DNA from: Candidatus Sericytochromatia bacterium
GTDB taxonomy: Bacteria; Cyanobacteriota; Sericytochromatia; UBA7694; JACMQJ01
DNA length: 64,000 bases
Assembly: GCA_046328015.1 (NCBI GenBank)
Contig: JAXLXH010000001.1
Coordinates: 2,546,350-2,610,349, forward strand
Direction: 5' to 3'
Part shown: positions 3,001-24,867 of the stretch, one piece after another
Position numbering within the stretch: the first letter of the stretch is position 1
How the letters are laid out: every line of letters starts with the position of its first letter
The notes under the pieces: model-generated
What the model was told of the DNA's origin: nothing
The model's database searches: none
Seen by the model: the letters and a program-made list of their open reading frames with translations, nothing else
Position numbers and translations under genes: made by a program

Positions 3001-4475
3001 ATAGTGTTGATGGTGTTTATTTAGGTGATACCATAAAAGTTAAAGAATTAGAAGATGGCAGATTAAGCTTAAAACCTACTACCAAAAATGGTAGTTTAAA
3101 GATAGGTAGTAGTAAAGATGATATAATATCAATGTTAGATGATTTAAATAAACTTAATTCTGTTAATGCCTCCTCTAATCTTCCTAATGATATAAAAAAT
3201 ATTAAACAACAATTAGCTACATTCTCAACGCTTAATATGAGAGCTGATTTAGATAATTTTAGTATTATTTATGATCCTAAAAATAAAAATATGGTTTTAG
3301 ATTCAGATCTAAATGGTCAAATTGGTACTAAGGTTATAGTTGATCCGAATAATAAAACAGATATCAATTTTAGAAATGTAGATATTACAGGAAAATTAAA
3401 AGCAGATACCGAATCTAATAATTTAACTATTACTAATGGTGTAATGTCAGGTACTACAGATAATATAGAAGATATGATTTTAGGTGCTTTAGCAAAATCT
3501 GGAGCTATACCAAAAGATTATGTAACAGATAAAGAAAAACATAAAATATCTTTTAATATGGGTGGAAAAACTGTTAATATAGATACTAATAAAACAGGTA
3601 TTGGAGAAGATAGTCAAATAGGATTAAAAACTGGAACTAAATTAGCGGGTATCAATTTTAATTATAAAATGAAATCTAAAGTAACAGTTGAAAATATAGC
3701 TCCTAAAGATGCTAAAGAACCTAAAAATGTTATAAAAATACATTTAGATAAAAGTAGCTTAGCAGGTTTGATGACTGTTGATCTAGATGGAAAAGGTAAA
3801 ACTTTAGGTGGTTTGATAAAAGTTAATCTAAATAAACAAATAGAAGGAAATAGAACTCCTTATTTAGATTTTATAGAAACATTAGATAATTTTGATAAAA
3901 ATACCGAAAAAGATTATAAAGAAGCTAAAACTACTTTTGAAAATAAGTTTTTAGCCGAACTTCCTAAAGATACTAGAGAAAAAGAAAAAAATAGAAAATT
4001 AGAAAAAGCTCTAAAAGAAAATAATTTAGATTCTTTTGATAATTATCAAAAACATACAGGTGCGGTGCAATTATTAGATGGAAGAACTATTATTTTTGAT
4101 TTGGAACAATATTTAAAAACTCAAACGGGTGGAAATGCAGATTTTAAAATAGAACCATCTAAAAATGTATTATCAGGTGATAAAGATGCAGATCATTTTA
4201 AATTAGGTTTTTCTGTTACGGTAAAAAATATGGGTCCAGGTAAAGTTGATATTCCTAAAGATGTAAAAGAAGCTAAAAGTGTTACTGATATTATAGAGCA
4301 AGTTCCTGAAATACTTAATCAAACACTAAATGTTACAGAACAAGTAGATAAAGTTGCTAAGGATATAAATACTAATGTTAATAATACTGTAAATACAGTT
4401 AATGCTCAAAAAAATAATGCTTTGGGTCAAATGAGAAATATTAATACTCAGCTAAAAAATAATATAAAAAGATAA
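3..4475 (+). CDS. very large repetitive Lys/Asn/Asp-rich secreted or surface protein (5' end runs off the window; >1490 aa)
   Basis: Open frame without stops from nt 3 to the TAA at 4475; upstream of the M at 192 the same repeat style continues. Beta-rich low-complexity repeats, no Cys, no RTX GGXGXD repeats and no catalytic motif recognised. Confidence 0.6.
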   Translation: MDVNGIQKDGLQDWQGTLNGSISIDVKSKLEETLNKLDLPKGTRVNVVYDEKAKEFDVKLNYEMISERFGELTALRIKPEADGSLSIRSMGNLVNANLNLTDGLAVKGKVNVPFVASVAADGSVSMKDMDKIDAKAGAEVEIKTPLTLPNIKVGANVNPNMQRNTTTNKFDFNPNLTKGNANIFPDLKVDGKLIPQFVEDKTGSWETDAHKAIAGSIISVAESMEKGGFIVPQSIKNVKNNLKNWGTESYKSQEVKDKQVINDFVNGKIKLEYDISKQMNLKGFPNANINQFDPNIKFTGDGQKLNVVFDNSKLVASSDGKSTTVATQEGRPDGLSIDVSANLNNTTASVDAKARLQVNIDDKERKDFSKKLTDMGMNPNKAEISGDLTIDTKLHSELNSTDLSKVNLDATVNVKANDVSVFDPTTNTKISLRKAKADGDLKVVQEGKNTVLKADTKVSLSGFNVYKGNERLVAVGSAAFSGKLSYEHVQSEDKKSQKTKVLVQGHLDVSSGKYDDFSVKNLKADGLVAYTEKTGVTFGATTEAAIKLSGNITNEKEGINLNIKNVSGYGKIDVDQSGNIKSADIKAGASGKNEFRVAGKIKGEDFILESDLKAHGKVKIDKNGEKTTFSLKGDIDRLKTGNIDLEDFKNINAKVTFDPVTNSVTLKAETGKNLDLKGKIQGQEFIFKGDAEVTLQVDKATGKFTLTPNAKVEHLKVGDFDLKDAELNGAKISVDPSNGKNKVSIDSLENQNLNFKGDFISGKNNTTHVDIKGKGSINFEATPNKTTGKMDYSVSTKNEFENFEIGDFKLKNAVFDGKVGFDGQNISLNGNTNEYLKFKGTQINKHTNKETNLDFEAKGNLTIKTDKNDGLNISMQNVELKKGLIDDYLIEDTKINGKLNYQKAKDVKTLNFSGLDEKNPNLELSGKLTKTYKDLEGKEQKYVSEISNLALQGSVSLEDNKLKFHDLKTEVKGKVNGVSVNNIIAANTEKDGSLDIKLGNSVDGVYLGDTIKVKELEDGRLSLKPTTKNGSLKIGSSKDDIISMLDDLNKLNSVNASSNLPNDIKNIKQQLATFSTLNMRADLDNFSIIYDPKNKNMVLDSDLNGQIGTKVIVDPNNKTDINFRNVDITGKLKADTESNNLTITNGVMSGTTDNIEDMILGALAKSGAIPKDYVTDKEKHKISFNMGGKTVNIDTNKTGIGEDSQIGLKTGTKLAGINFNYKMKSKVTVENIAPKDAKEPKNVIKIHLDKSSLAGLMTVDLDGKGKTLGGLIKVNLNKQIEGNRTPYLDFIETLDNFDKNTEKDYKEAKTTFENKFLAELPKDTREKEKNRKLEKALKENNLDSFDNYQKHTGAVQLLDGRTIIFDLEQYLKTQTGGNADFKIEPSKNVLSGDKDADHFKLGFSVTVKNMGPGKVDIPKDVKEAKSVTDIIEQVPEILNQTLNVTEQVDKVAKDINTNVNNTVNTVNAQKNNALGQMRNINTQLKNNIKR

Positions 4476-4590: not shown

Positions 4591-6186
4591 GTGAAAAATG
4601 ATTTAAAACCGTTACCACTAGGTAATGCAACATTCAAAAAAGTAATAGAAGAAGGTTGTATTTATGTAGATAAAACAGAAGAAATACATAAATTAATTGG
4701 AGATAATAAACAAAGTAGATATTATTTTTTATCTCGCCCAAGAAGATTTGGTAAATCATTACTTATAAGCACATTAGAAGAAATTTTTAAGGGAAACAAA
4801 GAGCTTTTTAAAGGGTTATATATTTATGATAAAATAGATTTTAAAAAATACCCAGTAATAAAATTAACAATGAATGACTTAAATTATGCTCAAGGAATAA
4901 AAGACTTTGAAAATTCACTTTTATTTCAAATAAAAAATATTTATGAAACATATAATATAGAACTAAAAGAAAATGATTATATTTTATCATTTAAAAGGCT
5001 TATACAAGAATTATCAAAAAAATCAGAACAAGAAAAAGTTGTTTTACTAATAGATGAATATGACAAACCAATTATTGAATATTTGGGTGATAATATTGAA
5101 CGTGCAACAGAAATGAGAAAAATTTTGAAAAATTTTTATGAAACAATAAAAGCGAATGATCAATATCTTCATTTTGTTTTTTTAACAGGAGTTTCTAAAT
5201 TTTCTAAAACTTCAATTTTTTCTAGTTTGAATAATATAACTGATATAACATTAGATAATGAATTTTCAAAAATAGTAGGGATAAATGAAGAACAATTATA
5301 TGATTATTTTGATGAATATATAAAAATTTTGGCAACAGAAAATCAGTATAGTATAGAAAATATAAAAAAAGAATTAAAATTTTGGTACAATGGGTATTCT
5401 TGGGACGGTAAAAACTTTTTATATAACCCTTATTCTCTATTAAGTGTTTTTAGTAAAAAAAATGTCGATAATTATTGGTTTGAAACAGGAACTCCAACTT
5501 TTTTAATAAAAACTATAAAAGAATACAATATTGATGTTCGTAAATTAGAAAAATTAGTTTTATCTTTAAATAGTTTTTCTTCTTTTGATATTGATAATAT
5601 GAATGTATATGCGTTACTTTTTCAAACTGGTTATTTAACTGTAAAAGAAATAATAAAAAATGGCTTAGAAAGAGAATATGTTTTATCTTATCCAAATAAA
5701 GAAGTAAGAATTTCAATGTTAGAACATTTATTAAATGACTATGTAGGAAAAATAGTAGATGATGATATATCAGTTAATGAAATGGTTCGTAAATTAAAAA
5801 ATAATGATATGGATGGTCTAAAAAATATTTTTATTTCTATTTTTGGAACAATAGCAGTAAAAATGCAACCTAATTCTAATACAACTATTCAAGATAAAGA
5901 ATTATATTATCATACTATTTTTTATTTAATTTTTGTGCTTATAGGTTCTAAAATAAAAGCTGAAGTTTCTACAAATAAAGGTTTTATAGATGCAGTAGTA
6001 GAAACAGATAAATATATTTATATTTTTGAATTTAAAATGGGTAGTACAAAATCAGCAATTAGGCAAATTAAAGATAAAGCTTATTATGAGCCATATTTAG
6101 CTAAAAATAAACAAATCTTTTTGGTAGGTGTAAGCTTTGATTCTAAAACAAAAAATATAAAAAAATGGGTTTTGGAAAAATTATGA
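4591..6186 (+). CDS. predicted AAA-ATPase-like protein with C-terminal PD-(D/E)XK nuclease-like domain (PF09820/DUF1703-type architecture)
   Basis: N-terminal 'YFLSRPRRFGKSLL' motif typical of the predicted AAA-ATPase-like family. C-terminal 'DAVVETDKYIYIFEFKMG' has a D...E-x-K arrangement typical of PD-(D/E)XK. Confidence 0.6.
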   Translation: MKNDLKPLPLGNATFKKVIEEGCIYVDKTEEIHKLIGDNKQSRYYFLSRPRRFGKSLLISTLEEIFKGNKELFKGLYIYDKIDFKKYPVIKLTMNDLNYAQGIKDFENSLLFQIKNIYETYNIELKENDYILSFKRLIQELSKKSEQEKVVLLIDEYDKPIIEYLGDNIERATEMRKILKNFYETIKANDQYLHFVFLTGVSKFSKTSIFSSLNNITDITLDNEFSKIVGINEEQLYDYFDEYIKILATENQYSIENIKKELKFWYNGYSWDGKNFLYNPYSLLSVFSKKNVDNYWFETGTPTFLIKTIKEYNIDVRKLEKLVLSLNSFSSFDIDNMNVYALLFQTGYLTVKEIIKNGLEREYVLSYPNKEVRISMLEHLLNDYVGKIVDDDISVNEMVRKLKNNDMDGLKNIFISIFGTIAVKMQPNSNTTIQDKELYYHTIFYLIFVLIGSKIKAEVSTNKGFIDAVVETDKYIYIFEFKMGSTKSAIRQIKDKAYYEPYLAKNKQIFLVGVSFDSKTKNIKKWVLEKL

Positions 6187-6260
6187 TATTTAGTAATATC
6201 AAGATTGAGTTAAAATTTTTACTTGCTTTTATATTTACTTTATTTTTCTTACCCAAACGA

Positions 6261-6420
6261 CTAATTTTATTGATAATTTAAAATCAAGAGCCAGTTCCTT
6301 ATAAACTATCTTTTTTTGATAGACCTGAAGTTCATATTGGTTGAATGATGTTAATGTTTCACCTTTTCAATAACTTTAATAGCTTATGCTTTATATAGTT
6401 GGAGAAAAAATTAAGAGCAT
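6261..6420 (+). pseudogene. collapsed remnant of a paralogue of the glycine-zipper gene at 7865..8254
   Basis: 6261-6287 matches 7898-7926 ('taattttattgataatttaaaatcaa'), then joins directly to a match of 8034-8100 ('gagccagttccttataaa...tttgatagacc.gaagttc.tattgg') and 8215-8245 ('agcttatgctttatatagttgg'). Internal deletions remove the Gly-rich core and the frame is destroyed. Confidence 0.55.
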
Positions 6421-6437
6421 TTTTTATTTACAGATAA

Positions 6438-7445
6438 TTATTTTATATTGTTTATAAATTTTATTATAAGAGGCATAATTTTTTTATTTAGAGGCAAGTT
6501 AGGATTAATATAGGTTTTTAGATTTTCTGATACATCAATTGGTGCATCTTTCAATATATGATTCATATTTTCTATTATTTCTATTTTTGAATTTTTATTT
6601 GATGAATTTAGTTCTATTGCATTAGCAACACTTACTTGTAAATCTGTTGTGCCTTGAATAATTTGAATATCACAATTAAGATTTTTTATCTCTTTTGCAG
6701 GAGAATATTTTAGCCATGAAATTAAATAATTTTGACTTTTTGTCGCAAATACAAATTTTAATGTAGGATCTTTTATATCATTAACAAGTTTACCTTCTTT
6801 AAGATTTTTTATTATATAATTTAATTCTTCTTGATCAATATTAGGTTTTTTTAATTGTTCTAATAATACTTCACCAGCTTCTTTTCCCAAACCTGCTATA
6901 GATACAAACCCATTTACTTTTTCTTTTTCTGCACTAATTATACTTATTAAAGAACCTTCACTATGACCTAATAAAATTATTTTATTAAATCTTTTATCAT
7001 TTTTAAAAAATTTTATAATTGAAATAAGATCATTAATTCCGTCTTCTAAAGTTATATTTGATAAATTAAAATTATTTATTTTTTCAGGGTGAAGATACCT
7101 TTTATCAAATCTAAAAGAGGCTATTTTATCTTTGGCTAGTTCTTGAGATATATATTTATATGAATTAGTATTTAAGTTTATTTTTAAATCATTTCCATCT
7201 CTATTAATTGAACCAGAGCCAGGTACTATTAAAGCTATAGTTCCATTAGTAAAATTATTTGGTAAATTTAAAGTACCTAATATTTTGCCATCTTTTATAT
7301 TTATTTCTAATTCTTTTTCAACATATTCAATATTATTAGATATAAAAGTATCTTTTGATTTTGAATTATCAATATTTGCAAAAGCTTGGTTGAAACTAAT
7401 TAATAAAAAAGAAAAAAATATTAAATGTAATTTTTTTAAATACAT
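6438..7445 (-). CDS. secreted alpha/beta-hydrolase (serine hydrolase)
   Basis: 'LLGHSEGSLI' nucleophile elbow (GxSxG). Signal peptide 'MYLKKLHLIFFSFLLISFNQAFA'. The ORF-track start at 7478 is probably an N-terminal over-extension. Confidence 0.65.
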   Translation of the reverse strand: MYLKKLHLIFFSFLLISFNQAFANIDNSKSKDTFISNNIEYVEKELEINIKDGKILGTLNLPNNFTNGTIALIVPGSGSINRDGNDLKINLNTNSYKYISQELAKDKIASFRFDKRYLHPEKINNFNLSNITLEDGINDLISIIKFFKNDKRFNKIILLGHSEGSLISIISAEKEKVNGFVSIAGLGKEAGEVLLEQLKKPNIDQEELNYIIKNLKEGKLVNDIKDPTLKFVFATKSQNYLISWLKYSPAKEIKNLNCDIQIIQGTTDLQVSVANAIELNSSNKNSKIEIIENMNHILKDAPIDVSENLKTYINPNLPLNKKIMPLIIKFINNIK

Positions 7446-7608
7446 AAATTTTCCAATAAATACAATAAAAAATATCAATAATAATATGATATTAAATTTA
7501 TAAATAATATCTTTGTTTATTAAAAATTAATAGATTATCCTATTTTATATCTATTCCCATTTTTTTAGCATACAAGTTTATAATTATCTATACTTAAAAT
7601 TATTATAA

Positions 7609-7757
7609 ACACACACTTTGTCGTTCCGTAAGATCCTGAATCAAGTTCAGGATGACTAGGGAATCTAGTGTGTTTTTCTTATTTTAAACCTATAAAAAGT
7701 TACTTAGATCCTGAATCAATACTGAATCAAGTTCAGCATGACTTGAGGATGACTATA
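7609..7757. repeat. pair of small palindromic elements carrying the 'gatcctgaatcaagttcaggatgact' hairpin (related to repeat family C)
   Basis: 'cctgaatcaagttcagg' hairpin occurs twice (about 7632 and 7720). The first copy is bracketed by acacact/agtgtgt inverted ends. Confidence 0.5.
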
Positions 7758-7864
7758 AGCAACTTTTATAAGTTCTAAATTATATTTTTATAAAAAATAC
7801 CTTAAAAGCATTAGTTATTAGATTATAATTTAAATTATATAAATAGTAAGTAAATAAAAATATT

Positions 7865-8254
7865 ATGATAAATGCAATTCCTAATTCAAATCCAATAAGT
7901 AATTTTATTGATAATTTAAAATCAAAACCTATTTCTAATAATAATTATACTGCTGTATCAACTTCTTATAAATCAGATGCTTTTACTTTAAATACTAATA
8001 TTACAAAACCTATTCCTACAGATCCTCCTTATCAAGAGCCAGTTCCTTATAAACCTTCTTTTTTTGATAGACCCGAAGTTCGTATTGGTGGTATGATGTT
8101 AGGTGCAGGTGCTGTTGGTGGTGGAATTGGATACGCTGTTGGTTCTGCTTTTGGCAGAGCTAGCTTAGGTACAGCAATAGGTACAGGTGTAGGAGTTACT
8201 GCTCCAATAGCTTTATTAGCTTATGCTTTATATAGTTGGGGTAAAAATAACTAA
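7865..8254 (+). CDS. small membrane protein with C-terminal glycine-zipper (GxxxG-rich) hydrophobic segment and Asn/Pro-rich N-terminus
   Basis: '[23 protein letters not shown]...[22 protein letters not shown]' resembles Gly-zipper_2TM-type segments (established family knowledge). No signal peptide. Confidence 0.5.
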
Positions 8255-9288
8255 GAATATTTCTCTTCAAATAATAATGCTATTTTTACTAAAAATAATA
8301 AAACTGGTACTTCTACTAAAGGTCCAATAACACTTGCAAAAGCCGAACCAGAATTAATTCCAAAAACGGCAATTGATACAGCCAAACCAAGCTCAAAGTT
8401 ATTACCTGCTGCTGTAAAAGCCATAGCAACAGCTTTTTTATAATTAGTTCCCATTTTTATAGTTAAATAAAAAGTTAGGAAAAACATAATAGCAAAATAT
8501 ATACTTAAAGGTATGGCTATACGAATAACATCAAAAGGAATAGTTAGAATTAGATTGCCTTTTAAACTAAACATTACAAAAATGGTAAATAAAAGTGCAA
8601 TTAATGTAAAGGGGCTAATAATAGGGACATATTTTTCTTTAAACCATTTTTCACCTTTAGTTCTAATTAGAAAATATCTAGATGTAAATCCCATTAAAAA
8701 AGGAATTCCTAAATAGATAAAAACAGATTCGGCTACTTGTTTCATTGTTATAGCTACTTCAAATCCTTTTATTCCAAAAAATGGAGGTAAAATAGTTAGA
8801 AAAAACCAAGCATATACAGAATAAAATAAAACTTGGAAAATACTATTAAAAGCAACAAATGAAGCTGCTAAAGTATTATCTCCTTTAGCTAAATCAATCC
8901 AAACTACAACCATAGCAATACAAGGAGCAATTCCCATTAACATCATACCAGTCATATATTCAGGTTTATCTGGTAAAAATAAAATAGCTAAACTAAACAT
9001 TAAAAGTGGAGCTAAGATCCAAACTAGAAAAAATAATAAACTTATAACTTTTATATTTTTAAATACTTTAGTAATTTCAGTATAATTAACTTTTGCTAAT
9101 GGTGGATACATCATAATAATAAGCCCAATAGCAATAGGGATATTTGTGGTTCCAGATTGAAACTTATTCCAAAAAGAAGCTAAAGAAGGTAAAAAATAGC
9201 CTAATATTACTCCCAAAAACATTGCTGAAAAAATCCAAACAGTTAAATATCTATCTAAAAAAGAAAGTTTTTTTGTTAACTCAGACAT
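8251..9288 (-). CDS. acr3: arsenite efflux permease, ACR3 family
   Basis: N-terminus '[13 protein letters not shown]' matches the conserved ACR3/ArsB(YqcL) signature. Polytopic hydrophobic protein. Lies in the ars cluster. Confidence 0.85.
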
Positions 9289-9297
9289 AATTAATAC

Positions 9298-9720
9298 CTA
9301 TTCAAGTTCACTATTATTTTCTAAGGCTCTCTTTAGTATATCCAAACGGTTTTTTATTTGATTTCTTATTTCCCTAAATAAATTCATTTGCTCTTCATCA
9401 GATAAAGAAGGGTTTGCAGGATCAGTTAAAGCCCAATTTAATTTTTTCGTTTTTCCTAAAAAAGTAGGGCAAACTTCTTCGGCACATAAAGTTATAACTA
9501 AATCAATACTATTAGGTTTAATACTTTCAACAGATTTTGATTCTTGTTTACTGATATCAATATCTAATTCAGCTAAAGCTTTTATTGCATAGGGATTAAC
9601 AAATGATGGCTTAGATCCTGCACTTTGAATATGATAATTATTTCCCAAAATATTTTTAGCTAATCCTTCTGCCATCTGACTACGTGCAGAATTTGCTACA
9701 CATAAAAATAGAATATTCAT
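9298..9720 (-). CDS. arsC: arsenate reductase, LMW-PTP (thioredoxin-coupled) type
   Basis: '[16 protein letters not shown]' CX5R P-loop at the N-terminus and distal Cys 'TLCAEEVCP', as in Bacillus/Staphylococcus ArsC. Confidence 0.85.
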
Positions 9721-9756
9721 TTTATTCTCCTTTAGTCTTTATTTTTATTAGATAAT

Positions 9757-9869
9757 ACGGGGGTGTCTAAAAAGTGTGCGTTAATTATAACGCCCATACT
9801 AAAACACTGGCTTTCACCCTAGTCTTTCGTAAAAAAAAGACCTAGAAAAAGCCTTTTTGGACACACCCG
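9757..9869. repeat. family-B-like MITE with terminal inverted repeats (gggtgtctaaaaag ... ctttttggacacaccc)
   Basis: GC-rich element in the AT-rich arsI-arsC spacer. The ends form a perfect inverted repeat of about 14 bp. Related to the 14081 and 22174 copies ('ttttacgaaa' core). Confidence 0.55.
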
Positions 9870-9948
9870 TTTCAGGGGTACGGGAGCAGAGCCACCCATC
9901 CCTTCCTCCTGCGGGGTTGATAACCCGTAGGAAGTCTTAAATTCATTT
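9870..9948. repeat. family-A GC-rich palindromic element (REP/RPE-like), copy 1
   Basis: 'tttcaggggtacggg...cccttcctcctgcggggttgataacccgtaggaagtcttaaattcatt' shares core and terminus with the copies at 12679 and 63459. Confidence 0.75.
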
Positions 9949-10068
9949 ATACTTTATGAACTAGTTTACAATTTATTTGCAAACTAATCCATATTTAGTA
10001 TAATTTTAATTGAATCATTTAAACTTATGTTAGTTGGGTAAAACCCTCTAACAAAGTATTTTATTATT

Positions 10069-10539
10069 TTAAGAACAACATTTAACTTTTTTGGTTAAAC
10101 TTTCTTTTTCATTTGTAGGGCAACAAGCAGAAACATCTTCTGGTTTACTAGTTTCTAACATATCATCTAATAAAACATAAACTTCCCATTTATTTCCATC
10201 AGGATCCATTGCCCAAACTTTATCTTGAAGTGCATAACAGCAAGTAGTATTTTTTTCTTCTAAAGTTAATAAACCTGCTTGTTTTAATCTTAAAACTCCT
10301 TTCTCTACCTCTTCTTTACTAGAAACTTGTATGCCTAAATGACTCAAAGTTCCTTTACCTTGTTCTATATTAGCTTCATTTAAGGCTAGTTTTAAAGGTG
10401 GATTTTGCAAATCAAAATTGGCATATCCTTTACGAGTTTTATGTACTTTTTCACCAAAAAAAGCCTCATAAAATTTAATAGCATTCTCTATGTTAGATAC
10501 ATTAAGAGAAACATGTGTTTTTGCAATTGTACTTGTCAT
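10069..10539 (-). CDS. arsI: ArsI-like C-As lyase (VOC/glyoxalase-fold dioxygenase) with vicinal Cys pair
   Basis: Glyoxalase/bleomycin-resistance-type fold in an ars operon. Vicinal Cys 'TCCYA' in the position where ArsI binds trivalent organoarsenicals, plus a Cys-rich C-terminal tail (ACCP...KCCS). Start is likely at M8 (10539), abutting the arsR stop. Confidence 0.6.
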   Translation of the reverse strand: MTSTIAKTHVSLNVSNIENAIKFYEAFFGEKVHKTRKGYANFDLQNPPLKLALNEANIEQGKGTLSHLGIQVSSKEEVEKGVLRLKQAGLLTLEEKNTTCCYALQDKVWAMDPDGNKWEVYVLLDDMLETSKPEDVSACCPTNEKESLTKKVKCCS

Positions 10540-10898
10540 TTTTTTATACCTCCACAACAAGGACTAATAATTTTTGATAGAAATTTTGAAAGTTGAGAAA
10601 CTTTTTCTTTATTAATAGAATAAAGCATATTTTTACCTTTACGTTCGACATTTATAAGCCCTGCATAACGTAACTCTTTTAGATGATGTGACATAGTGGA
10701 TGTAATATTATTTTCACCAGTTATTGTGCAACATATATCACCTACTGTAATACCACAAACATTTCTAATATTATTTTCGTCATCTAAAGCGAAAGAATCA
10801 CAACAAGAAGCAAGATATTCAAATATTTTTAATCTTGACGGTTCTCCTAACGCTTTTAGTAAAACAGCCATTTCTTTTATTTCTAATTCATTACTCAT
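10536..10898 (-). CDS. arsR: ArsR/SmtB-family metalloregulator with multiple Cys pairs
   Basis: Winged-HTH 'PSRLKIFEYLAS...MSHHLKELRYAGLI' typical of ArsR. Cys pairs ASCC, DICC and a C-terminal PCCGG are possible As(III)/MAs(III) sites. Confidence 0.75.
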   Translation of the reverse strand: MSNELEIKEMAVLLKALGEPSRLKIFEYLASCCDSFALDDENNIRNVCGITVGDICCTITGENNITSTMSHHLKELRYAGLINVERKGKNMLYSINKEKVSQLSKFLSKIISPCCGGIKK

Positions 10899-10996
10899 TT
10901 CTATACTTTCATATTTTTATAACTATAGAAATATTAGAGTATAAAATATAAATTGTCAATGTTTTTTATAAAAATATTTTTACTAAAACGGATATA

Positions 10997-11851
10997 TTAA
11001 TCAAAAACATCAGATGGTTTAAGTGGCGTATCTACATACATATCCAAAGTAATACTAGTAGAAGCATGACCTAAATATTTAGATATACCTTTAATACTTT
11101 TCCCTTCTTGATGTTTTATGGTAGCAAAAGAATGTCTTAAAGTATGAGGATGAACATCTTTTAGCAGTATTTCTTGTCCATATTTATGTATTTCAGCATG
11201 AACATATCTTCTAGAAAAAGGTTCTCCATTTTTATTTATAAATAAATAATCTTTTGATTTATAAGCATTTTTTATTCTTTTTAATAATTCATCTGTTAAA
11301 TATATGGTTCTTTCTTTTCTACCTTTACCAACAACTTTAAAATAATGGAAACCTTGAGATAATTTAGAATTTTTTAATCTTAAGCTTAATAACTCACTAA
11401 CTCTCAAGCCACTAATAGCTAAAGTTTCAATTATTAAGGAGATTTTTTTAGGTGTTTTTTCTATCAAAATATCAATCTCTTCTTTATTTAAAGTATCACC
11501 TTCATAAATAGCTTTATCTATTTTAAACCCCTTTAATTCTTCTTTAAAAAACTCATTTAACATGCTAATAAACATATAACTATCAGATTCTTTGGGTAAA
11601 GTTTTTTTTATGCCCAATTTTAAAGCTTGTTTTTTTACATTTAAAGTTTGAGGACTATAATCTTGTTTTAATAACCACTGCCAAAAAATAGCTAAATTTT
11701 CTCTGGTTAGGGGTAAATTATTATCTTTTAGGTAATTATTAAATTGCTTTATATGGCAATCATAGTTTTTATCATTAATAAAAACCATACCTTCTAATGA
11801 GTTATTATTATTTACTTTTTCTAAAGTATTATCAGATAATATCAAATCCAT
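10997..11851 (-). CDS. tyrosine recombinase (XerD-like / phage-integrase family)
   Basis: C-terminal catalytic box 'HPHTLRHSFAT...LGHASTSITLDMYVD' (R-H-R-Y residues). N-terminal SAM-like core-binding domain. Confidence 0.8.
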   Translation of the reverse strand: MDLILSDNTLEKVNNNNSLEGMVFINDKNYDCHIKQFNNYLKDNNLPLTRENLAIFWQWLLKQDYSPQTLNVKKQALKLGIKKTLPKESDSYMFISMLNEFFKEELKGFKIDKAIYEGDTLNKEEIDILIEKTPKKISLIIETLAISGLRVSELLSLRLKNSKLSQGFHYFKVVGKGRKERTIYLTDELLKRIKNAYKSKDYLFINKNGEPFSRRYVHAEIHKYGQEILLKDVHPHTLRHSFATIKHQEGKSIKGISKYLGHASTSITLDMYVDTPLKPSDVFD

Positions 11852-11855
11852 ATTT

Positions 11856-12806
11856 TTATTCGGTTACAAATATTACTTTCTTCTCTAAAAACTGAGAATT
11901 AAGCTCTTTTTCATATTCTTGAGCATCAAGTTTTTCTAAATCTTTTGCCTTAATATCAAAATAATTTTTAGCAAATTTTTTATTAAAATCTATTTTAATC
12001 ATTTCTTTTATTCTTACAAGAGATTCTTTAAAAACATTATCATCATATTCATAACGAATATTTTCTATTTTTAGTGGAAAATTTAATTTTTTAGAAAACC
12101 AAATATTTATTTTATCAATATATTTACTTTCGCTAAAATATTCTGTTTTGGGGTATATTTTTATGCGTTCTATGTTAAAAACTTCGCAATCATAACCTTT
12201 AAATTTTTCAGTATAAATTTTTTTATGTTTTATATTTTTTAAAAAATTATAAAGCTTTTTGTTATTTTCAAACATTTCATAATCATAAATATTTTCTATA
12301 GCAAAATCAAAAACTTTGGTATCCTTAGTTAAATTTTTATATTCCATACCAAAATCATTATATTTATCTAAAAAACCGTTAAAAGAATAAAAAATATTTT
12401 TATCTTTATCAATAATAATATAATTTCTAGTATTATCATTACCTAAAGTTGTTATTTTTATTTTATTTTTTATAGTGCTATAAACTTCTTTTTGTCCATA
12501 AAAACCATGGTCTTTTAATATTTCAAGTAAATTAGTTTCAGTAATATTTTCTTTTAATTGGGGATAAACCTTAGTATCATAAGTTATTTCAATATTTTCT
12601 GGTAAAGCATAAGCTTTTTGAAAATTTAAAATAATTAAACTAGTAAAACCAAATAAAAAATATTTTATGATTACTAGAGAAGACCTCAGAGCTCCGCTCT
12701 GGGGTTTCAGGGGGTACGGGGGCATAGCCCCCGATCCCTTCCTCCTACGGGGGATCACCCCCGTAGGAGGTCTTAAATTCATTATTAAAGAATTATTTAA
12801 AACCAC
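11856..12806 (-). CDS. hypothetical secreted protein; N-terminal about 40 codons are read through a family-A repeat
   Basis: Hydrophobic signal-like segment 'IIKYFLFGFTSLIILNFQKAYA'. The only in-frame ATG upstream (MPPYPLKPQ...) lies inside the repeat at 12679-12784. No family assignment. Confidence 0.45.
   Translation of the reverse strand: MVLNNSLIMNLRPPTGVIPRRRKGSGAMPPYPLKPQSGALRSSLVIIKYFLFGFTSLIILNFQKAYALPENIEITYDTKVYPQLKENITETNLLEILKDHGFYGQKEVYSTIKNKIKITTLGNDNTRNYIIIDKDKNIFYSFNGFLDKYNDFGMEYKNLTKDTKVFDFAIENIYDYEMFENNKKLYNFLKNIKHKKIYTEKFKGYDCEVFNIERIKIYPKTEYFSESKYIDKINIWFSKKLNFPLKIENIRYEYDDNVFKESLVRIKEMIKIDFNKKFAKNYFDIKAKDLEKLDAQEYEKELNSQFLEKKVIFVTE
12679..12784. repeat. family-A GC-rich palindromic element, copy 2
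   Basis: 'gagctccgctctggggtttcagggggtacgggggcatagcccccgatcccttcctcctacgggggatcacccccgtaggaggtcttaaattcatt' contains the perfect palindrome cctacgggggatcacccccgtagg and gacctc/gaggtc ends. Confidence 0.8.
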
Positions 12807-13951
12807 GATTTAAAAGAATTCCAAGCTGATGAAATACCATTTGATATTTTACCTACAGTATTTCCAACTGCATTAGCTAAACGATCTACTTGTTTTTCTG
12901 CAAAAGCAACAGCCTTACCAACTCCTTCTTTAGCTTTATCGGCTACATAAGTTAAAGCTTTACCTGTTTTTTCTAAGGCAACTCCAACTGTTTTAGAAAC
13001 TTTTGCTACCACTACTTGTCCTGTAGCTTTTACGGTATTTACTACACCACCTTTTTTGAAGTTCTCATCAGCTTTAGCTTCCATTTTATTTCCATAATCT
13101 TGAGCTTTTTTACCAGCTTTTTCAGCTCCTTCGCCTAAAGTTTTCACTCCTTTTATCGCAGCTCCTGCCACTATAGATGTTGCGGCAATAATAGTTTGTC
13201 CTTGAGCTGCTACAGATGAAGCCATTACTCCAGCTACTTTTCCATCTTTTTTAGAAACATTCTCATAAGTTTGTTTTACTTTTGTGCCTACATGTTGTAC
13301 GGCACTTTCATTTTCACCTTTTGCATCTTTAAACCAACCAAATTCCTTAGTTGCTTTATCTCCATAATGAGCTATCTCAGCCCCAGCATAAACAGCTATA
13401 CCAATAGGGCCACTAACCACAGCTGAAGTAACTAAAGCACCACCTTTTACTACATTCCAACCACCATCATAAGTATCTCCTTTTGCTATTTGATAAATTC
13501 CTTTACCTATTTGTAGTGAACCGCCAGCTACGCCTAAAACAGTTAAACCTTTTGATAATCCAGAGGCTAATTTATCATGATTAGCTATAACTAATCTTCC
13601 AATAGAACTTTTTTCAACAAATTGAACAACTTTATTTTCAGTAAGAAAAGTGGCAACATTTTTTACTGTTTTACTTTCCATTACAGCATTTTTTATTTTA
13701 TCTATTTTTCCAGATGCTTCTGCTGGTTCAAAAGTTCCTTGAGCAATCTTTTTTACTTTAGAAGTTGTTTCTATAGCTGTATTACCATTACTAACAACGC
13801 TTTTAGCTGTTTTTACTCCTTGAGAACTTACATCAAATACTTCTTGTGTTTTATCAGCAGATTTTAATGCTTTTTGAGATGCTGTTTTTACATTTCCACC
13901 AAAAGTACTTCCAACTGGAGTTTGAGAAAAAGAAAGAGTTCCACCAGACAT
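12797..13951 (-). CDS. Gly/Ala/Lys-rich protein with central glycine-zipper hydrophobic region and amphipathic-helix repeats (possible membrane-active protein)
   Basis: No signal peptide. 'GLTVLGVAGGSLQIGKGIYQIAKG...GGALVTSAVVSGPIGIAVYAGAEIAHYG' hydrophobic Gly-zipper segment, then KAxxKxxxGVGKAVA-like repeats. Overlaps the start of the downstream ORF by 10 nt, so the two are probably co-transcribed. Confidence 0.5.
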   Translation of the reverse strand: MSGGTLSFSQTPVGSTFGGNVKTASQKALKSADKTQEVFDVSSQGVKTAKSVVSNGNTAIETTSKVKKIAQGTFEPAEASGKIDKIKNAVMESKTVKNVATFLTENKVVQFVEKSSIGRLVIANHDKLASGLSKGLTVLGVAGGSLQIGKGIYQIAKGDTYDGGWNVVKGGALVTSAVVSGPIGIAVYAGAEIAHYGDKATKEFGWFKDAKGENESAVQHVGTKVKQTYENVSKKDGKVAGVMASSVAAQGQTIIAATSIVAGAAIKGVKTLGEGAEKAGKKAQDYGNKMEAKADENFKKGGVVNTVKATGQVVVAKVSKTVGVALEKTGKALTYVADKAKEGVGKAVAFAEKQVDRLANAVGNTVGKISNGISSAWNSFKSWF

Positions 13952-14080
13952 AAAAAACCCTCAAAGATATAAAATAAAATTCCTTATTAATAATAGTAAA
14001 AATTAAAAAAATATTTCTTCATTTAAAGGTTTTTTAACAATTAAATTTTATATAATTCCTGATGGTTTCAAAAAAACATC

Positions 14081-14174
14081 ATTTTTTACGAAAAATATTG
14101 GTGTAAAACCCAGTATTTTCGTAGAGGAAAAGCACTGTTTTGTCCTCTCCGAGACCCCCAAGGTCTTAATTTTA
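14081..14174. repeat. family-B MITE copy
   Basis: 'ttttacgaaaaatattggtgtaaaacccagtattttcgtagaggaaaagcactgttttg...ggtcttaatttt' matches 22190-22283 almost base for base in the core. Confidence 0.75.
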
Positions 14175-14999
14175 AAAAGAGTCAATTTTTTCTATATCTT
14201 CTTTTTCCAGATTAATAGATTTATAAGAAGAAATAGCTAAGTTTATATTTTCTTTTTTAGTGGAACTAATAATAGGTATAATATTTGAACCTTTACTTTT
14301 TATCCATAAAAGAGTAATAATTTCAGAGCTTGTATTATATTTTTTTGCCAATGATTGTAATAAATTATCTAATAAAGTATTATTTCCTTTATGATAAATT
14401 CCATAAGCAAAATATAAAATATTGTTGTCCTTACAATAATCTAATAAACCTGTTTTTAAGTCTTTCTGAAAAAAAGGATTAAGTTTATTTTGTATAGAGT
14501 AAATACCACTAATTTTATCTAAATTTTGAAATTCATATAAATCTATTAAATCTATATTTGATAAGCCAAAATTTAAAATTTTACCTTTTTCTTTTAATTC
14601 TTTAATAGTATTTAAAATTATATTTTTAGCTACTTTTTTATCATAAACATGTAATTGATAAAGAAAAAGCTTTTTTAAATTCAAATTTTCTAAGCTTTTA
14701 TTGCAACAATAATTCAAAAATTCAGGTCTATTATCTATAACAGATTGATTGTTTTTTATATAATAACCGCCTTTAGTAGCAATAAATAATTCTTTTAATT
14801 TTTCACCTAATAAGCTTTCTAAAAATCTTTCATTACCACCAATATCATCATAATTTTTACCATAATAATATGCGGTATCTATAATATTTATATCCGAATC
14901 TAAAACGTGTTTTATAAGCTCTTTACTTTTTAGAGTATCTTCTTGAAGCTTTTTTGATAAAATAAAGCTACCATAAGCAAGATTAGAAATATTATTCAT
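14172..14999 (-). CDS. aldo/keto reductase-family oxidoreductase
   Basis: 'IIDTAYYYG' resembles the AKR 'IDTAxxYG' active-site region. Length and pattern are consistent with an AKR. Confidence 0.55.
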   Translation of the reverse strand: MNNISNLAYGSFILSKKLQEDTLKSKELIKHVLDSDINIIDTAYYYGKNYDDIGGNERFLESLLGEKLKELFIATKGGYYIKNNQSVIDNRPEFLNYCCNKSLENLNLKKLFLYQLHVYDKKVAKNIILNTIKELKEKGKILNFGLSNIDLIDLYEFQNLDKISGIYSIQNKLNPFFQKDLKTGLLDYCKDNNILYFAYGIYHKGNNTLLDNLLQSLAKKYNTSSEIITLLWIKSKGSNIIPIISSTKKENINLAISSYKSINLEKEDIEKIDSF

Positions 15000-15001: not shown

Positions 15002-15787
15002 TTAATTAGCTATATCTATATAATCTGTATGAACATCACAAGGATTTTTCATTTCTTGCATTCTCCAATAATTTCTACCATTATATTTTTTAAAAGTAAA
15101 ATCTCCTAATCTTTGACAAGGCATACCAGAAAAAATATGGTTTATTTGCATAGTAATTTTTCCATTAAAATTTAGTTGGTATTTATCAATACTAGTAAAA
15201 AAACCATCTATTTCTAAAAAATCACCTTTTACTTTTTTTGAATTATATCTACCTTTCATAAAAACTTTATTATCTTTTTCAAAAACCTTGATCTTTTCAT
15301 AATCATTAAAACTTATCCATTGTAAAGATATTTTAGTGTTTTTTAATAAGCTTTTTTTAGCTTTACTGTCTTTTATTATGGTTTTAGTATAATCAGGTGC
15401 TTTTAGATTAAATTTAAGTTCTTTACCTTCTCCTTTTGGTAGCCAAGTTCCAGTAAAATTATTATCTAAAATTTTACCTTCCAAAGAGCCTGTAACTTTT
15501 TCTTTATCAGTAGATTCAGCTACAAAAATATTAGTAAGATTTTTATAAAAATCTCCATCATATCCTCCATCTAAAGTTAAATATTTTATACCCTCAGAAT
15601 CATAAGAATAAAATCCTGTAAGATGAGGATCTTTTTCATTATTATTTTTTATAAGTGTTAATTGAATAGGATATTTGTCCAATTTTCCAGAAAAATATCT
15701 GTAATAAGCACCTGCTGTTTCTTCTGAGAAGGAGTTATTTGTAAATAATAATTGTAAAATACCTATAAATAAAATAGTTTTTTTCAT
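15002..15787 (-). CDS. hypothetical secreted protein
   Basis: Signal peptide 'MKKTILFIGILQLLFTNNSFS'. No family recognised. Its start lies 3 nt from the stop of the AKR gene. Confidence 0.5.
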   Translation of the reverse strand: MKKTILFIGILQLLFTNNSFSEETAGAYYRYFSGKLDKYPIQLTLIKNNNEKDPHLTGFYSYDSEGIKYLTLDGGYDGDFYKNLTNIFVAESTDKEKVTGSLEGKILDNNFTGTWLPKGEGKELKFNLKAPDYTKTIIKDSKAKKSLLKNTKISLQWISFNDYEKIKVFEKDNKVFMKGRYNSKKVKGDFLEIDGFFTSIDKYQLNFNGKITMQINHIFSGMPCQRLGDFTFKKYNGRNYWRMQEMKNPCDVHTDYIDIAN

Positions 15788-16655: not shown

Positions 16656-17885
16656 GTGAAGGTTTGGCATACAAAAAAATTATTTATAGGTTTTATAATT
16701 TTAGCTTTTTCAATAAATATTTCTTGTCAACCAGAATATGGTTATGTAGAGTTACCTAAATATGATTTCCCAGAACCTTCTGCTACACCAAAACCTTCTG
16801 TTAGTCCTAAAGAAGAAGAAGAAACTAAAACTACCACTAAACCTAAAACTGAACCTAAAAAAACTCCAGAAACACCTAAAAATACTTTAGATACTATTTT
16901 TTTAACATCAGAAGTTAAACATAAGTTAGAAAAATATGTAAAAGAAGATTTAAAAAGTACCTTTGATAATAATGGTTATTACCTATACTACAAAAATAAA
17001 GATGAAGAAGGTTTAATGATTAATAAAAAAGGTTCTAATTCTGCTTATTGGGTTCATGCAGATATTTATAAATCTTTTAAACAAGCTGGAGGGATAGAAA
17101 TTCTAGGCTACCCTGTAGCTGAACAAGAATTTATTCATCAAGATAAATTAAAAGATACTGTGGCTAAGCAACTTTTTGAAAAAGGGGTAATTTATTATTT
17201 TAATGATCCAGATTTAGAAAATTTTTATGAAAATACTTTGGTAAGATTATATGATGATTTAAAAATAGATAATATTGATTTTAAGTTTAAAACAGATGCC
17301 AATCTACCTACTTATGCAGAAAAATCTACAGGAAGACAAGGTGATCCTATAAATATAATTTTTATTGCAAAAAATCAAGAGCAAATAGAAAAAGCTTTTG
17401 ATGATTCTAAATGGGTTAAACCAAAATTTGGTTTTAATAATATACCTTTTTCTGAATTACAAGTTTATGGTAGAGGACAAGATTTAGGTTATGCCAGAGA
17501 AACTAGTAATATTTTTACTTTTTATAAAAGAAGACATCATATAAGATTTTGGAATTCTGCTACTAAAGAAAATGATAAAGAAATGTGGGTGGCAGCAGCT
17601 ACTGAAGATGTTGAAGTTAAGTTTAAAAATAAAGATTTAAGACAAGAAGAAAAGAATAATAAAGATCCTGATAGAAAAAATCCTTTAACGCATAAAATAG
17701 ATCCTGATACAGATAAAGAGCGAGAATACGTTAGAAAAACTTTAACAGAAAAAAATCCCAAAATTAAAACTTATTTTGTAAAACACCCCAAAATATCGGA
17801 TAAATTTGTTGATACTACTAATAGTAGTTTAGATTTGGTACTTTGGGATGGTAGAATTTTAGTTGTGGATTTAAGTGATATTTAA
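16656..17885 (+). CDS. lipoprotein with Pro/Thr/Lys-rich linker and an LGFP-like repeat
   Basis: Lipobox 'NISC'. Linker 'PKPSVSPKEEEETKTTTKPKTEPKKTPETPK'. 'GGIEILGYPVAEQEF...QLFEKGVIYYF' fits the LGFP-repeat pattern (LG[FY]P...Q.FE.G.IYW). Confidence 0.5.
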   Translation: MKVWHTKKLFIGFIILAFSINISCQPEYGYVELPKYDFPEPSATPKPSVSPKEEEETKTTTKPKTEPKKTPETPKNTLDTIFLTSEVKHKLEKYVKEDLKSTFDNNGYYLYYKNKDEEGLMINKKGSNSAYWVHADIYKSFKQAGGIEILGYPVAEQEFIHQDKLKDTVAKQLFEKGVIYYFNDPDLENFYENTLVRLYDDLKIDNIDFKFKTDANLPTYAEKSTGRQGDPINIIFIAKNQEQIEKAFDDSKWVKPKFGFNNIPFSELQVYGRGQDLGYARETSNIFTFYKRRHHIRFWNSATKENDKEMWVAAATEDVEVKFKNKDLRQEEKNNKDPDRKNPLTHKIDPDTDKEREYVRKTLTEKNPKIKTYFVKHPKISDKFVDTTNSSLDLVLWDGRILVVDLSDI

Positions 17886-18712
17886 GAAAAATTATGTAGC
17901 TCATAACCTATCATCATTTTTTTCTTACCACTACCCCAATAGTAATTTCCTATCTTACATTCTTTTCTTATAACTCTATGACAAGGAATTAAATAACTAA
18001 TTGGGTTAGAACCAATTGCAGTTCCAACAGCTCTAATTGCTTTAGGGTTTTCTATATGATTCGCAATAGTTTGATAACTTACTAAAATTCCTTCTGGTAT
18101 TTTTAATAAAGCTTCCCAAACTTTTATTTGAAAATTAGTACCTTTTAATAATAGATTTAATTTCCCTTTTTTTAATTCACCATAAAAAATCTTGTTTACA
18201 ATATCTTTGGTGTTTTCTTTATTTTCAATAAAATTACTTAATTCCCATTTTTCTTTTATTTCATTTAGAGCTTTATCATAATCATTGTTTATAACAAAAC
18301 CTAAACCACAAAGCCCTCTTTTTGTAATTGCTACGATACATTCTCCAAAAGGAGTATCATGAAATCCATATTCAATATTTAATCCTTTACCTTTGGTTTT
18401 ATATTCATTAGGTGTCATTGCTTCAATATTAACAAATAAATCATAAACTCTAGATTGAGCAGATAAACCAGCATAGTCTGAAATTTCACAAACATTACTA
18501 ATATCATAAATTTTATTTTTAATGTATTCTATAGTAAGATAACCCAAAAATTTTTTGGGACTAATTCCAACCCAGTTTATAAATTCTTTTTGAAAATTAT
18601 CTGCTTTAAATCCAAATTTTGTAGCAATCTCTTCTATTTTAGGATTATTATTTTTATTATCATAAATATATTTTATGATTTCTTCCATTTTATAATAATT
18701 TTCTTTTTGCAT
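17882..18712 (-). CDS. Ada-like fusion: AraC-type HTH regulator + O6-methylguanine-DNA methyltransferase
   Basis: C-terminal 'IPCHRVIR' is the MGMT active-site PCHR motif. N-terminal AraC-type HTH. Confidence 0.8.
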   Translation of the reverse strand: MQKENYYKMEEIIKYIYDNKNNNPKIEEIATKFGFKADNFQKEFINWVGISPKKFLGYLTIEYIKNKIYDISNVCEISDYAGLSAQSRVYDLFVNIEAMTPNEYKTKGKGLNIEYGFHDTPFGECIVAITKRGLCGLGFVINNDYDKALNEIKEKWELSNFIENKENTKDIVNKIFYGELKKGKLNLLLKGTNFQIKVWEALLKIPEGILVSYQTIANHIENPKAIRAVGTAIGSNPISYLIPCHRVIRKECKIGNYYWGSGKKKMMIGYELHNFS

Positions 18713-18789
18713 AAAATTAACCCTCTAATTTTTTATAGTTTAATTTTAAAATAAAAAAGATTATAACCCAACCTGATTTTAGAAAAAAA

Positions 18790-19224
18790 CTATTTAAGTT
18801 TAATTATTACATTAGGAATCCATAATTTTATCCAACGAGAGATTTTTTCTTCGGCACTTAAAATTTTTGGGGATACATTTAAATTGTCTCCAAAATTTAG
18901 TTTTTGCTCTAAACAACTTAAATTGATATTTCCATAAATACCAGAATTATCTTTAAAAATTACAGCTACAAAAACACCACAGTTTTTACATAAAATAAAA
19001 GAAGCATTATTAGAACCTTGTTGATATTCATGAATACTTTGCTCTTTAGCTTCTATTACTAATTCTCCTAAGGGATCAGAAATATATTTAGCACCATGTT
19101 TTTGACAAAAAGAGCAATCACAAACTCTAGGGTTAATCTCTGATTGCTCTAAATTGGTAGCAAAAGTAAAAGTTATATTTTTACAATAACAACTACCATA
19201 ATGAGTAAATTTTTTTACTGACAT
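18790..19224 (-). CDS. GFA-family (glutathione-dependent formaldehyde-activating-like) zinc-binding protein
   Basis: Cys motifs 'GSCYCKN', 'RVCDCSFCQKHG' and 'CKNCG' are typical of GFA/CENP-V domains. Confidence 0.55.
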   Translation of the reverse strand: MSVKKFTHYGSCYCKNITFTFATNLEQSEINPRVCDCSFCQKHGAKYISDPLGELVIEAKEQSIHEYQQGSNNASFILCKNCGVFVAVIFKDNSGIYGNINLSCLEQKLNFGDNLNVSPKILSAEEKISRWIKLWIPNVIIKLK

Positions 19225-19232
19225 TTAAATTC

Positions 19233-19586: not shown

Positions 19587-19663
19587 TTTTTGCTCCTTAT
19601 AAAATAATGAATACTTAATTTTATAACTAATATTTTTTAATGCAATATTTTAATAAAAAATAA

Positions 19664-22036: not shown

Positions 22037-22173
22037 AATTAACTAAACTAATATCTTATATAAATTAAACTTTTTTAGATAATTTAAGCAGATGATTTAT
22101 AAAAACACAAGTATAACTTAGTTAAAAGTTAGGTGATGTTTTTTATCTTTTCTACCGATATTTTTAAGATTTT

Positions 22174-24855: not shown

Positions 24856-24867
24856 ATTTTTATTTTT

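Follow-up and report, generated by a model that had tools for sequence, protein, structure and literature searches.

Do arsenic-resistance genes that lie beside a gene for a tyrosine recombinase form a mobile operon dedicated to organoarsenicals, or a chromosomal cluster of a more general kind? The question is raised by a stretch of DNA of 64,000 nucleotides (nt), here called the window, from an uncultured, extremely AT-rich Candidatus Sericytochromatia bacterium, which belongs to the non-photosynthetic sister lineages of the cyanobacteria. An initial annotation had proposed that the window carries a compact organoarsenical-resistance island consisting of arsR, arsI, arsC, and acr3. The window is chromosomal, with a GC content of about 25%, and has dnaE, cysS, and genes for aromatic amino-acid biosynthesis aboard. 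Our analysis indicates that the locus is very probably a chromosomal arsenic-detoxification cluster. The predicted combination of an inorganic pathway (ArsR, ArsC, and Acr3) with an ArsI pathway for demethylation or dearylation is a well-described one, of which this would be a new example from a little-studied lineage. Only the clade to which the regulator belongs and the palindromic repeats within the cluster exceed routine annotation.

Organization of the cluster

All genes of the block are encoded on the minus strand, in the order recombinase, arsR, arsI, spacer, arsC, and acr3:

8251-9288, minus strand: acr3, arsenite efflux permease, 345 aa (TIGR00832, Pfam SBF)
9298-9720, minus strand: arsC, low-molecular-weight-phosphatase-type arsenate reductase, 140 aa (Pfam LMWPc, alignment to 1jl3)
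9721-10068: arsI-arsC spacer, 348 nt, which holds repeat Y and, nested in it, repeat X
9735-9955, minus strand: copy of repeat Y, split by X (nhmmer against the Y profile)
9756-9868, plus strand: copy of repeat X, nested in Y (nhmmer, 3e-23)
10069-10539, minus strand: arsI, 156 aa, VOC-superfamily protein predicted to be an Fe(II)-dependent C-As lyase (NF041414)
10536-10898, minus strand: arsR, cysteine-rich ArsR/SmtB repressor, 120 aa (NF033788)
10911-10959, minus strand: predicted arsR promoter and operator (promoter scan, conservation in relatives)
10997-11851, minus strand: tyrosine recombinase, 284 aa, co-directional with arsR and directly upstream of it (Pfam Phage_integrase)

The four co-directional ars genes were borne out by family models, and Pfam likewise confirmed the recombinase that had been placed upstream of them together with 2 open reading frames (ORFs). 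These ORFs, at 11856-12806 and 12797-13951, lie upstream of the recombinase gene and have no match in Pfam or NCBIfam. The genes arsR and arsI overlap by 4 nt (ATGA), here and in relatives, with arsI starting at the ATG at 10539 that overlaps the arsR stop codon, again as in relatives. A TTG at 10560 was considered as the arsI start and rejected in favour of this ATG. Between arsC and acr3 the gap is 9 nt.

The closest homologues of ArsI and ArsR (65-76%) come from AT-rich metagenome-assembled genomes (MAGs) and metagenome contigs. As the named ones all belong to Candidatus Sericytochromatia, the cluster is typical of this lineage. Exact look-ups of ArsI and ArsR retrieved only Logan contigs of 0.9-2 kb, in which the gene arrangement is identical.

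ArsI has the residues of a C-As lyase

ArsI matched the NCBIfam ArsI/CadI equivalog NF041414 over the full profile (1-147 of 147) with 170.4 bits, against a cut-off of 116, and showed the VOC/glyoxalase fold by its match to PF00903 (1e-13). Residues 5-126 were aligned by phmmer to the ArsI of Thermomonospora curvata (TcArsI; 5c4p and 5cb9, 2e-30), and the identity to this crystallised enzyme amounts to 46-48% over 122 residues, without significant gaps. In TcArsI, Gln8, His65, and Glu117 are the metal ligands, while Cys98-Cys99 bind the substrate (PMC6138428). The alignment places His9, His67, and Glu119 opposite the former, keeping the Fe(II) triad, and Cys100-Cys101, located in the motif NTTCCYA, opposite the latter (TTCCYALQDK aligned to TACCYAVQDK). 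All 5 residues (H9, H67, E119, C100, and C101) are invariant among 54 ArsI homologues. The assignment of the VOC protein to the ArsI type, first made from its vicinal cysteine pair (TCCYA), is thus upheld by the NF041414 score and the position of C100-C101, and a check of the 3 metal ligands, all of which are present, left it standing.

Like TcArsI (5c4p, 5cb9, and 5v0f) and the ArsI of Bacillus sp. MD1, the protein has a VOC fold, and its gene is located within an ars cluster, adjoining arsR (PMC6138428). The likeness to TcArsI extends beyond the aligned triad and Cys-Cys substrate site to a cysteine-rich, disordered C-terminal tail, in which the window protein has further cysteine pairs (139-140 and 154-155) in a region of low model confidence. 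Unlike TcArsI, with its Gln8, the window protein has a histidine, His9, as first metal ligand. Histidine in this role has also been reported for the Bacillus ArsI enzyme. Both characterised proteins also differ from the present one in that its host is an uncultured member of the Sericytochromatia and in that it is known here from sequence alone. Another parallel is found in the Rv2640c-cadI (Rv2641) region of Mycobacterium tuberculosis, where, as in the window, an ArsR-like regulator is encoded beside a VOC protein of the ArsI/CadI family, that of the window passing NF041414. The window regulator, unlike Rv2640c, scored 46.8 bits against the cut-off of 155 of the Rv2640c family model NF041413, and does not belong to that family.

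ArsC and Acr3 represent the inorganic pathway

Acr3 matched the equivalog TIGR00832 over its full length (profile 1-327 of 327; 412 bits, cut-off 282.8) and Pfam SBF at 1.6e-51, and is 82% identical to the Acr3 of a relative (locus L006). Its sole cysteine, Cys123, is found in an A-P-C motif, and E326 in a V-E-V-P motif. We take these 2 residues to correspond to those that are essential in characterised Acr3 proteins.

ArsC, whose ATG is preceded by an AGGAG ribosome-binding site, matched Pfam LMWPc at 3e-17, and its best match in the PDB was ArsC of Bacillus subtilis (1jl3, 3.6e-27). It contains a CX5R loop, C7-VANSA-R13, and its C79 and C84 lie opposite C82 and C89 of 1jl3. By alignment and residue definition, rather than by equivalog score, it is predicted to be of the thioredoxin-coupled type. 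The CX5R loop, the 2 redox cysteines downstream of it, and the acr3 gene that follows are shared with the classical arsR-arsC-acr3 operons of Firmicutes and cyanobacteria (1jl3; 1jf8 of Staphylococcus aureus pI258). In contrast to these, the loop between the second and third redox cysteine is shorter (by 2 residues relative to 1jl3), the protein scores below the equivalog cut-off, and the 348-nt, repeat-filled spacer parts arsRI from arsC-acr3.

The regulator belongs to a widespread cysteine-rich clade

ArsR passed NF033788 marginally, with 57.6 bits against a cut-off of 55. It contains 7 cysteines, at positions 32, 33, 48, 56, 57, 114, and 115, which include 3 vicinal pairs. Helices 2 and 3 are separated by an insertion of 18 residues that forms a lower-confidence hairpin in the AF2 model (pLDDT 81). 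The best fold match of this model was AfArsR (6j05; TM 0.66/0.77-0.84), so that the protein resembles characterised ArsRs in its winged-helix ArsR/SmtB fold, and the arsenite (As(III))-responsive AfArsR most closely.

Published ligand sets of ArsR proteins are Cys32/34/37 in R773, Cys95/96/102 in AfArsR, Cys15/16/55' in CgArsR, and Cys41/80/82 in ArArsR (PMC11868830, PMC13236881), while SpArsR, which is selective for methylarsenite (MAs(III)), is defined by just 2 ligand cysteines (PMC11868830). Judged by its residues, the window ArsR appears to reproduce none of these 5 site types. Its C56 and C57 occupy the helix-3 position of the cysteines of R773 and CadC, and cysteines where helix 3 begins are shared with R773 and ArArsR. 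The helix reads D-I-C56-C57-T-I-T, however, with a CC instead of the CxC of the type-1 site of R773 (Cys32-x-Cys34-x-x-Cys37) and without a third cysteine. ArArsR has 2 wing-strand cysteines besides the one in helix 3 (PMC11868830); in the window protein the wing position, at which most members of its clade have a single cysteine, is taken by Tyr93. At the C-terminus, C114-C115 aligns to Cys95-Cys96 of AfArsR, with no equivalent of Cys102 and with the 5 other cysteines present elsewhere. A C-terminal CC pair lacking a third cysteine is equivalent to the pair of SpArsR (PMC11868830). CgArsR differs by its N-terminal cysteines, which the window protein lacks. In contrast to all 5 characterised proteins, the window ArsR has an invariant CC followed by the 18-residue insertion.

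A profile of the clade recovered 468 clusters (50% identity) at E <= 1e-10. Within the clade, C32, C33, C56, and C57 are conserved. The putative ArsR type would be recognised by a Cys-Cys pair that ends helix 2, the 18-residue insertion, another Cys-Cys pair in helix 3, and in most cases a wing cysteine and a C-terminal Cys-Cys pair. Among clade members defined by C32 and C56C57 (n = 62), 51 have the wing cysteine at position 93. The combination of Tyr93 and Cys48 was considered as a feature unique to the window ArsR; this held among close relatives but not in a set of 149 representatives (clusters of 50% identity), which includes 9 further full-length clade members without the wing cysteine and 2 with Cys48.

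The genomic context of the clade proved informative on its function. Only 6 of 80 metagenome loci have arsI beside the regulator gene, and most have arsC, an aquaglyceroporin gene, and/or acr3 alone. In 4 loci (L021, 2319-5420; L022, 2290-5391; L050; and L053), the clade arsR is divergent from the arsenite oxidase genes aioBA (AioA, TIGR02693, 596 bits; AioB, TIGR02694, 135 bits), and this branch is a candidate regulator of arsenite oxidation. The aioBA-linked branch has a 23-residue insertion and occurs in organisms with 55-60% GC, with phosphate-transport genes adjoining. The initial annotation had taken the multiple cysteines to suit the sensing of methylarsenicals. Because the clade is mostly found beside arsC, aquaglyceroporin, or acr3 genes without arsI, and sometimes beside arsenite oxidase, this argument does not hold. 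In addition, the 4 or more clustered thiols allow for a three-coordinate As(III) site, and an MAs(III)-selective ArsR has 2 ligand cysteines (PMC11868830). Rather, the cysteine-rich architecture appears to be a general arsenic-sensor design and not an organoarsenical signature.

In close relatives, arsR-arsI is followed by acr3-arsC (L006) or by MIP-arsC (L002), and both arrangements occur in GCA_964422885.1. A related Sericytochromatia contig (L018) has the order arsR-arsI-trx-arsP-arsC/VOC-acr3. Its gene at 8088-8927 encodes an ArsC fused to a second VOC domain, a distant relative of ArsI (49 bits), and is preceded by genes for thioredoxin and the ArsP-family permease. The arsC-acr3 part of the window resembles that of L018 minus trx-arsP and the VOC domain, with the X and Y repeats in their position.

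A conserved promoter and a spacer filled by repeats

Upstream of arsR, a promoter scan identified a -35 hexamer TTGACA (10959-10954) and, after 17 nt, a -10 hexamer TAATAT (10936-10931), with a score of 10 out of 12. The -10 hexamer is overlapped by a 24-bp palindrome, ATATTTCTATAG/TTATAAAAATAT, at 10934-10911. The hexamers and the palindrome are kept upstream of arsR in 4 relative loci, whose ArsR proteins are 62-76% identical to that of the window, making 5 loci in all. The palindrome occurs once in the window, with 0.06 occurrences expected by chance. This conserved sequence probably represents an autoregulated promoter with an ArsR operator. With such an operator, the cysteine-rich clade may offer a new type of arsenic-binding site and a use in biosensors.

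In the relatives, the gene after arsI begins about 12 nt downstream (12 nt in L006), compared to 348 nt in the window. The window spacer holds an insertion of 220 nt, in which repeat X has split a copy of repeat Y. As noted in the initial annotation, the spacer contains GC-rich repeats: the stretch has 54-59% GC in a genome of about 25% GC, and its elements recur elsewhere in the window. The RNA fold of the insertion has a predicted energy of -72.5 kcal/mol (z = -4.1 compared to shuffled sequences), and a terminator-like hairpin lies inside X, at 9793-9778 on the minus strand.

A model for arsenic detoxification and its alternatives

Taken together, these features suggest the following pathway. 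A dimer of ArsR would bind the 24-bp palindrome overlapping its own -10 hexamer, and would be released when a trivalent arsenical binds to its cysteine thiolates. The likeliest ligands would be C32/C33 and C56/C57 around the start of helix 3, with C114-C115 as a second, AfArsR-like site. Derepression would lead to expression of the translationally coupled arsR-arsI pair, and arsC-acr3 may be expressed by read-through of the spacer or from a weak internal promoter. ArsI, with Fe(II) bound by H9, H67, and E119 and with O2, would split the C-As bond of methylarsenite or of trivalent aromatic arsenicals held on C100-C101, yielding As(III). ArsC would reduce arsenate to As(III) through a thiol cascade from C7 to C79 to C84, with recycling by thioredoxin, and Acr3 would pump out the As(III) from both routes. 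If the annotation is right, a non-photosynthetic sister lineage of the cyanobacteria combines O2-dependent demethylation of organoarsenicals with the classical arsenate/arsenite route, which extends the known host range of arsI and leaves the understanding of the system unchanged.

Several observations weigh against this interpretation. The model NF041414 cannot tell ArsI from Cd-induced CadI proteins, and ArsC stays below both equivalog cut-offs, with 125.8 bits against 174.3 for TIGR02691 and 83.6 against 157.6 for the glutaredoxin-type TIGR02689. Regulation shared by all 4 genes is called into question by the 348-nt spacer, which is strongly structured and has one terminator-like hairpin on the transcribed strand, and by the missing ArsR operator ahead of arsC, where a palindrome search with up to 3 mismatches found no second copy. 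Because of the stable fold, the hairpin, and the missing operator, arsC-acr3 may not be co-regulated with arsRI; with the hairpin in X and no operator of their own, these 2 genes may rely for their expression on read-through or on a weak promoter bordering the element. Of the ars operon proposed initially, the four-gene cluster stands, while its being a single operon is made uncertain by the folding insertion of 220 nt and by an ArsR operator that is located upstream of arsR only.

The ambiguity of NF041414, whose name covers both ArsI and CadI, leaves room for a VOC protein that is not a C-As lyase but a metal-stress protein resembling CadI, or a VOC enzyme of another kind, in which case the cluster would serve inorganic arsenic only. 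A Foldseek search with the AF2 model gave its best E-values to C-As lyase structures, and the crystal arrangement of ArsI is not reproduced by that model, which is a point for this reading. Against it stand the similarity to the crystallised lyase, with every catalytic residue kept and invariant in the family, and the scores of FosB and the other next-best families, which are about 36 bits or less compared to 170 for NF041414. In addition, the gene after arsI in the relative L018, one gene (trx) intervening, encodes an ArsP-family permease (Pfam ArsP_1). ArsP is a methylarsenite efflux permease. We therefore regard a CadI-like function as highly improbable. A second alternative concerns the sensor: ArsR could be tuned to methylarsenite and other organoarsenicals rather than to As(III), making the unit a dedicated organoarsenical sensor-detoxifier. 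The translational coupling of arsR to arsI and the conservation of this pair in close relatives would agree with this, as would C114-C115 without an equivalent of Cys102, an arrangement also found in the MAs(III)-selective SpArsR (PMC11868830, PMC13236881), and Tyr93 in place of the wing cysteine, given that the C80S variant of ArArsR was left with a response to MAs(III) only (PMC11868830). However, the 4 clustered cysteines (32, 33, 56, and 57) and C48 suffice for an S3 site for As(III), and As(III) elicits a response from every characterised three-cysteine ArsR that PMC11868830 names, with ArArsR responding to both. The clade is mostly associated with arsC, MIP, or acr3 genes without arsI, and also with arsenite oxidase genes, where the inducer would be inorganic arsenic; inorganic arsenic, on which the ArsC and Acr3 of the operon itself act, would have to induce them. 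Such a dedicated sensor thus seems improbable, and a bias of the window ArsR towards MAs(III), suggested by Tyr93 and the two-cysteine C-terminal site, is possible but speculative. A related scenario, unlikely though somewhat less so, is that ArsR represents an uncharacterised, widespread arsenic-sensing type, of which the present variant, having lost the wing cysteine (Tyr93) and acquired Cys48, would lean towards methylarsenite in keeping with the coupling of its translation to that of arsI, and that the GC-rich palindromes split the operon, leaving arsC-acr3 independent of ArsR.

The recombinase and the question of an island

The remaining alternative concerns mobility: the block from the recombinase gene to acr3 (8251-11851) may be a small integrative island or cargo moved by the recombinase, which is present at one edge (10997-11851). 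The recombinase matched Pfam Phage_integrase at 7e-30 and has all its catalytic motifs (R, K, H-x-x-R, H, and Y) intact. The pooled GC content at third codon positions (GC3) of the 5 genes is 0.130, compared to 0.094 for the window, which makes them the highest five-gene block (Fisher p = 1.3e-4), flanked on both sides by genes of average or low GC3. Synonymous codon use of arsR, arsC, and acr3 is among the most atypical (z = -2.7, -2.5, and -1.6). Moreover, orthologues of the recombinase (79% and 71%) are located in wholly different neighbourhoods without ars genes, and no recombinase gene precedes the ars clusters of relatives. On the other side, no direct repeats bracket the block within the region searched (6150-14250), where the long repeats all belong to dispersed families, and the window has no tRNA or tmRNA gene. 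The GC3 shift is small (13% versus 9%), lies inside the extreme AT bias of the genome, and is drawn from short genes, while the nearest homologues of the ars genes come from the same lineage. Curated models recognise the recombinase neither as an integron integrase nor as a phage-type integrase: its best NCBIfam match was XerA-like, with 132 bits against a cut-off of 220, and it stayed far below the cut-offs for XerC and XerD. Finally, no relative with conserved flanks was found. With no att-like repeats and no tRNA gene, and only a modest GC3 excess and a variable recombinase context in favour, the island put forward in the initial annotation was not confirmed, and we consider mobilisation of the block possible but doubtful; a resident chromosomal cluster is the preferred interpretation.

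Searches for the flanks in other genomes were made in 2 ways. A synteny scan of genome contigs for the neighbouring aldo/keto reductase found a single groundwater Cyanobacteriota MAG (67% identity), which shares no other gene, and exact look-ups of the flanking proteins 7865-8254 and 12797-13951 gave no match. An integron was considered and rejected, as the recombinase scored 62 bits against 265 for TIGR02249, and the palindromic repeats, rather than forming a cassette array, are scattered across 55 kb in either orientation. A conserved pair of the recombinase and its upstream ORF was likewise rejected, as the 79% orthologue is preceded by an unrelated ORF.

A possible att scar, the duplicated 3' end of the gene 7865-8254 found at 6262-6415, was dismissed, as it flanks a hydrolase gene and not the ars block. 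It is an internally deleted pseudo-copy, with an in-frame TGA, of this gene for a 129-aa, Gly-rich membrane protein, and matches 7900-7935, 8031-8101, and 8205-8250 at up to 92% identity. The pseudo-copy lies on the far side of an alpha/beta-hydrolase gene (6438-7478), and suggests that the left border of the ars block underwent duplication or rearrangement on a local scale.

GC-rich palindromic repeats

Repeat Y is a multi-hairpin palindromic element of about 135 nt that occurs in both orientations, and repeat X is a palindromic element of about 110 nt. Besides the spacer copies given above, the window contains the following:

12655-12790, minus strand: Y
63448-63585, plus strand: Y
58338-58423, plus strand: Y, internally deleted
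14064-14170, minus strand: X
22171-22278, minus strand: X
23418-23475, plus strand: X, partial

The spacer copy of Y (9735-9955) matched the Y profile at 9e-24 in nhmmer, with the 3' tail of Y resuming past X. The terminal inverted repeats of X are GGGGGTGTCTAAAAAG / CTTTTTGGACACACCC in the spacer copy and GGGGGTGTCYAAAAA / TTTTTGGACAMCCCC in the family. Most X copies are located just downstream of minus-strand genes. In the 2 full copies of Y, the hairpins are preserved through some compensatory changes, and the fold of the copy at 12655-12790 is more stable than that of shuffled controls (z = -6.7). No Rfam family was detected in the whole window at gathering thresholds, and a search of the spacer against Rfam at E <= 10 gave only chance-level, miRNA-like matches. 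The loci of relatives yielded no copy of X or Y, and Y had no match in viral contigs.

X and Y behave like dispersed repeats of the REP or MITE type that are specific to this genome and are not part of the ars system. With REP/BIME, Correia, and RPE elements and cyanobacterial MITEs they share their size (110-135 nt), their multiple, mostly intergenic copies, their self-complementarity, and their occurrence in both orientations and in nested form. They differ from all of these in being GC-rich in a 25% GC genome, in showing no Rfam kinship, and in that no transposase or target duplication was identified, with X and Y seen in one genome and little sequence available. As GC-rich palindromes, they may affect gene expression in this extremely AT-rich genome.

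Two copies of Y overlap ORFs. The Y copy upstream of the recombinase gene overlaps the ORF 11856-12806 (at 12680-12806), whose sole canonical start, an ATG, falls inside the conserved 5' end of Y. This Y-derived start gives the ORF an extension of 35 residues, rich in R, K, and P, ahead of a segment resembling a signal peptide. The degenerate Y copy (58338-58423) is in frame and encodes residues 36-64 of a PAS/HisKA_2 kinase ORF (58233-59726). With the ORF starts taken as predicted, these cases recall the Rickettsia palindromic elements inside genes.

Motifs resembling ATCCTGAATC make up 2 further repeat families. One forms a direct pair (24858-24947 and 25329-25418, 87% identical) that brackets a GxxExxY-family gene (24958-25329; TIGR04256, 134 bits), and the other an inverted pair (7571-7657 and 61172-61258, 87% identical), 53 kb apart.

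Other genes in the window

The large ORFs at 192-4475 (1427 aa), 12797-13951, and 15002-15787 have no Pfam or NCBIfam match. The second of these encodes a 384-aa protein rich in Gly, Ala, and Lys, with 35% GC, which is unusually high for this genome. At 6-10 kb from the ars cluster, the region 17882-22036 encodes a fusion of an Ada-like AraC domain and O6-methylguanine methyltransferase, a GFA-family protein, and a heavy-metal P-type ATPase with an HMA domain.

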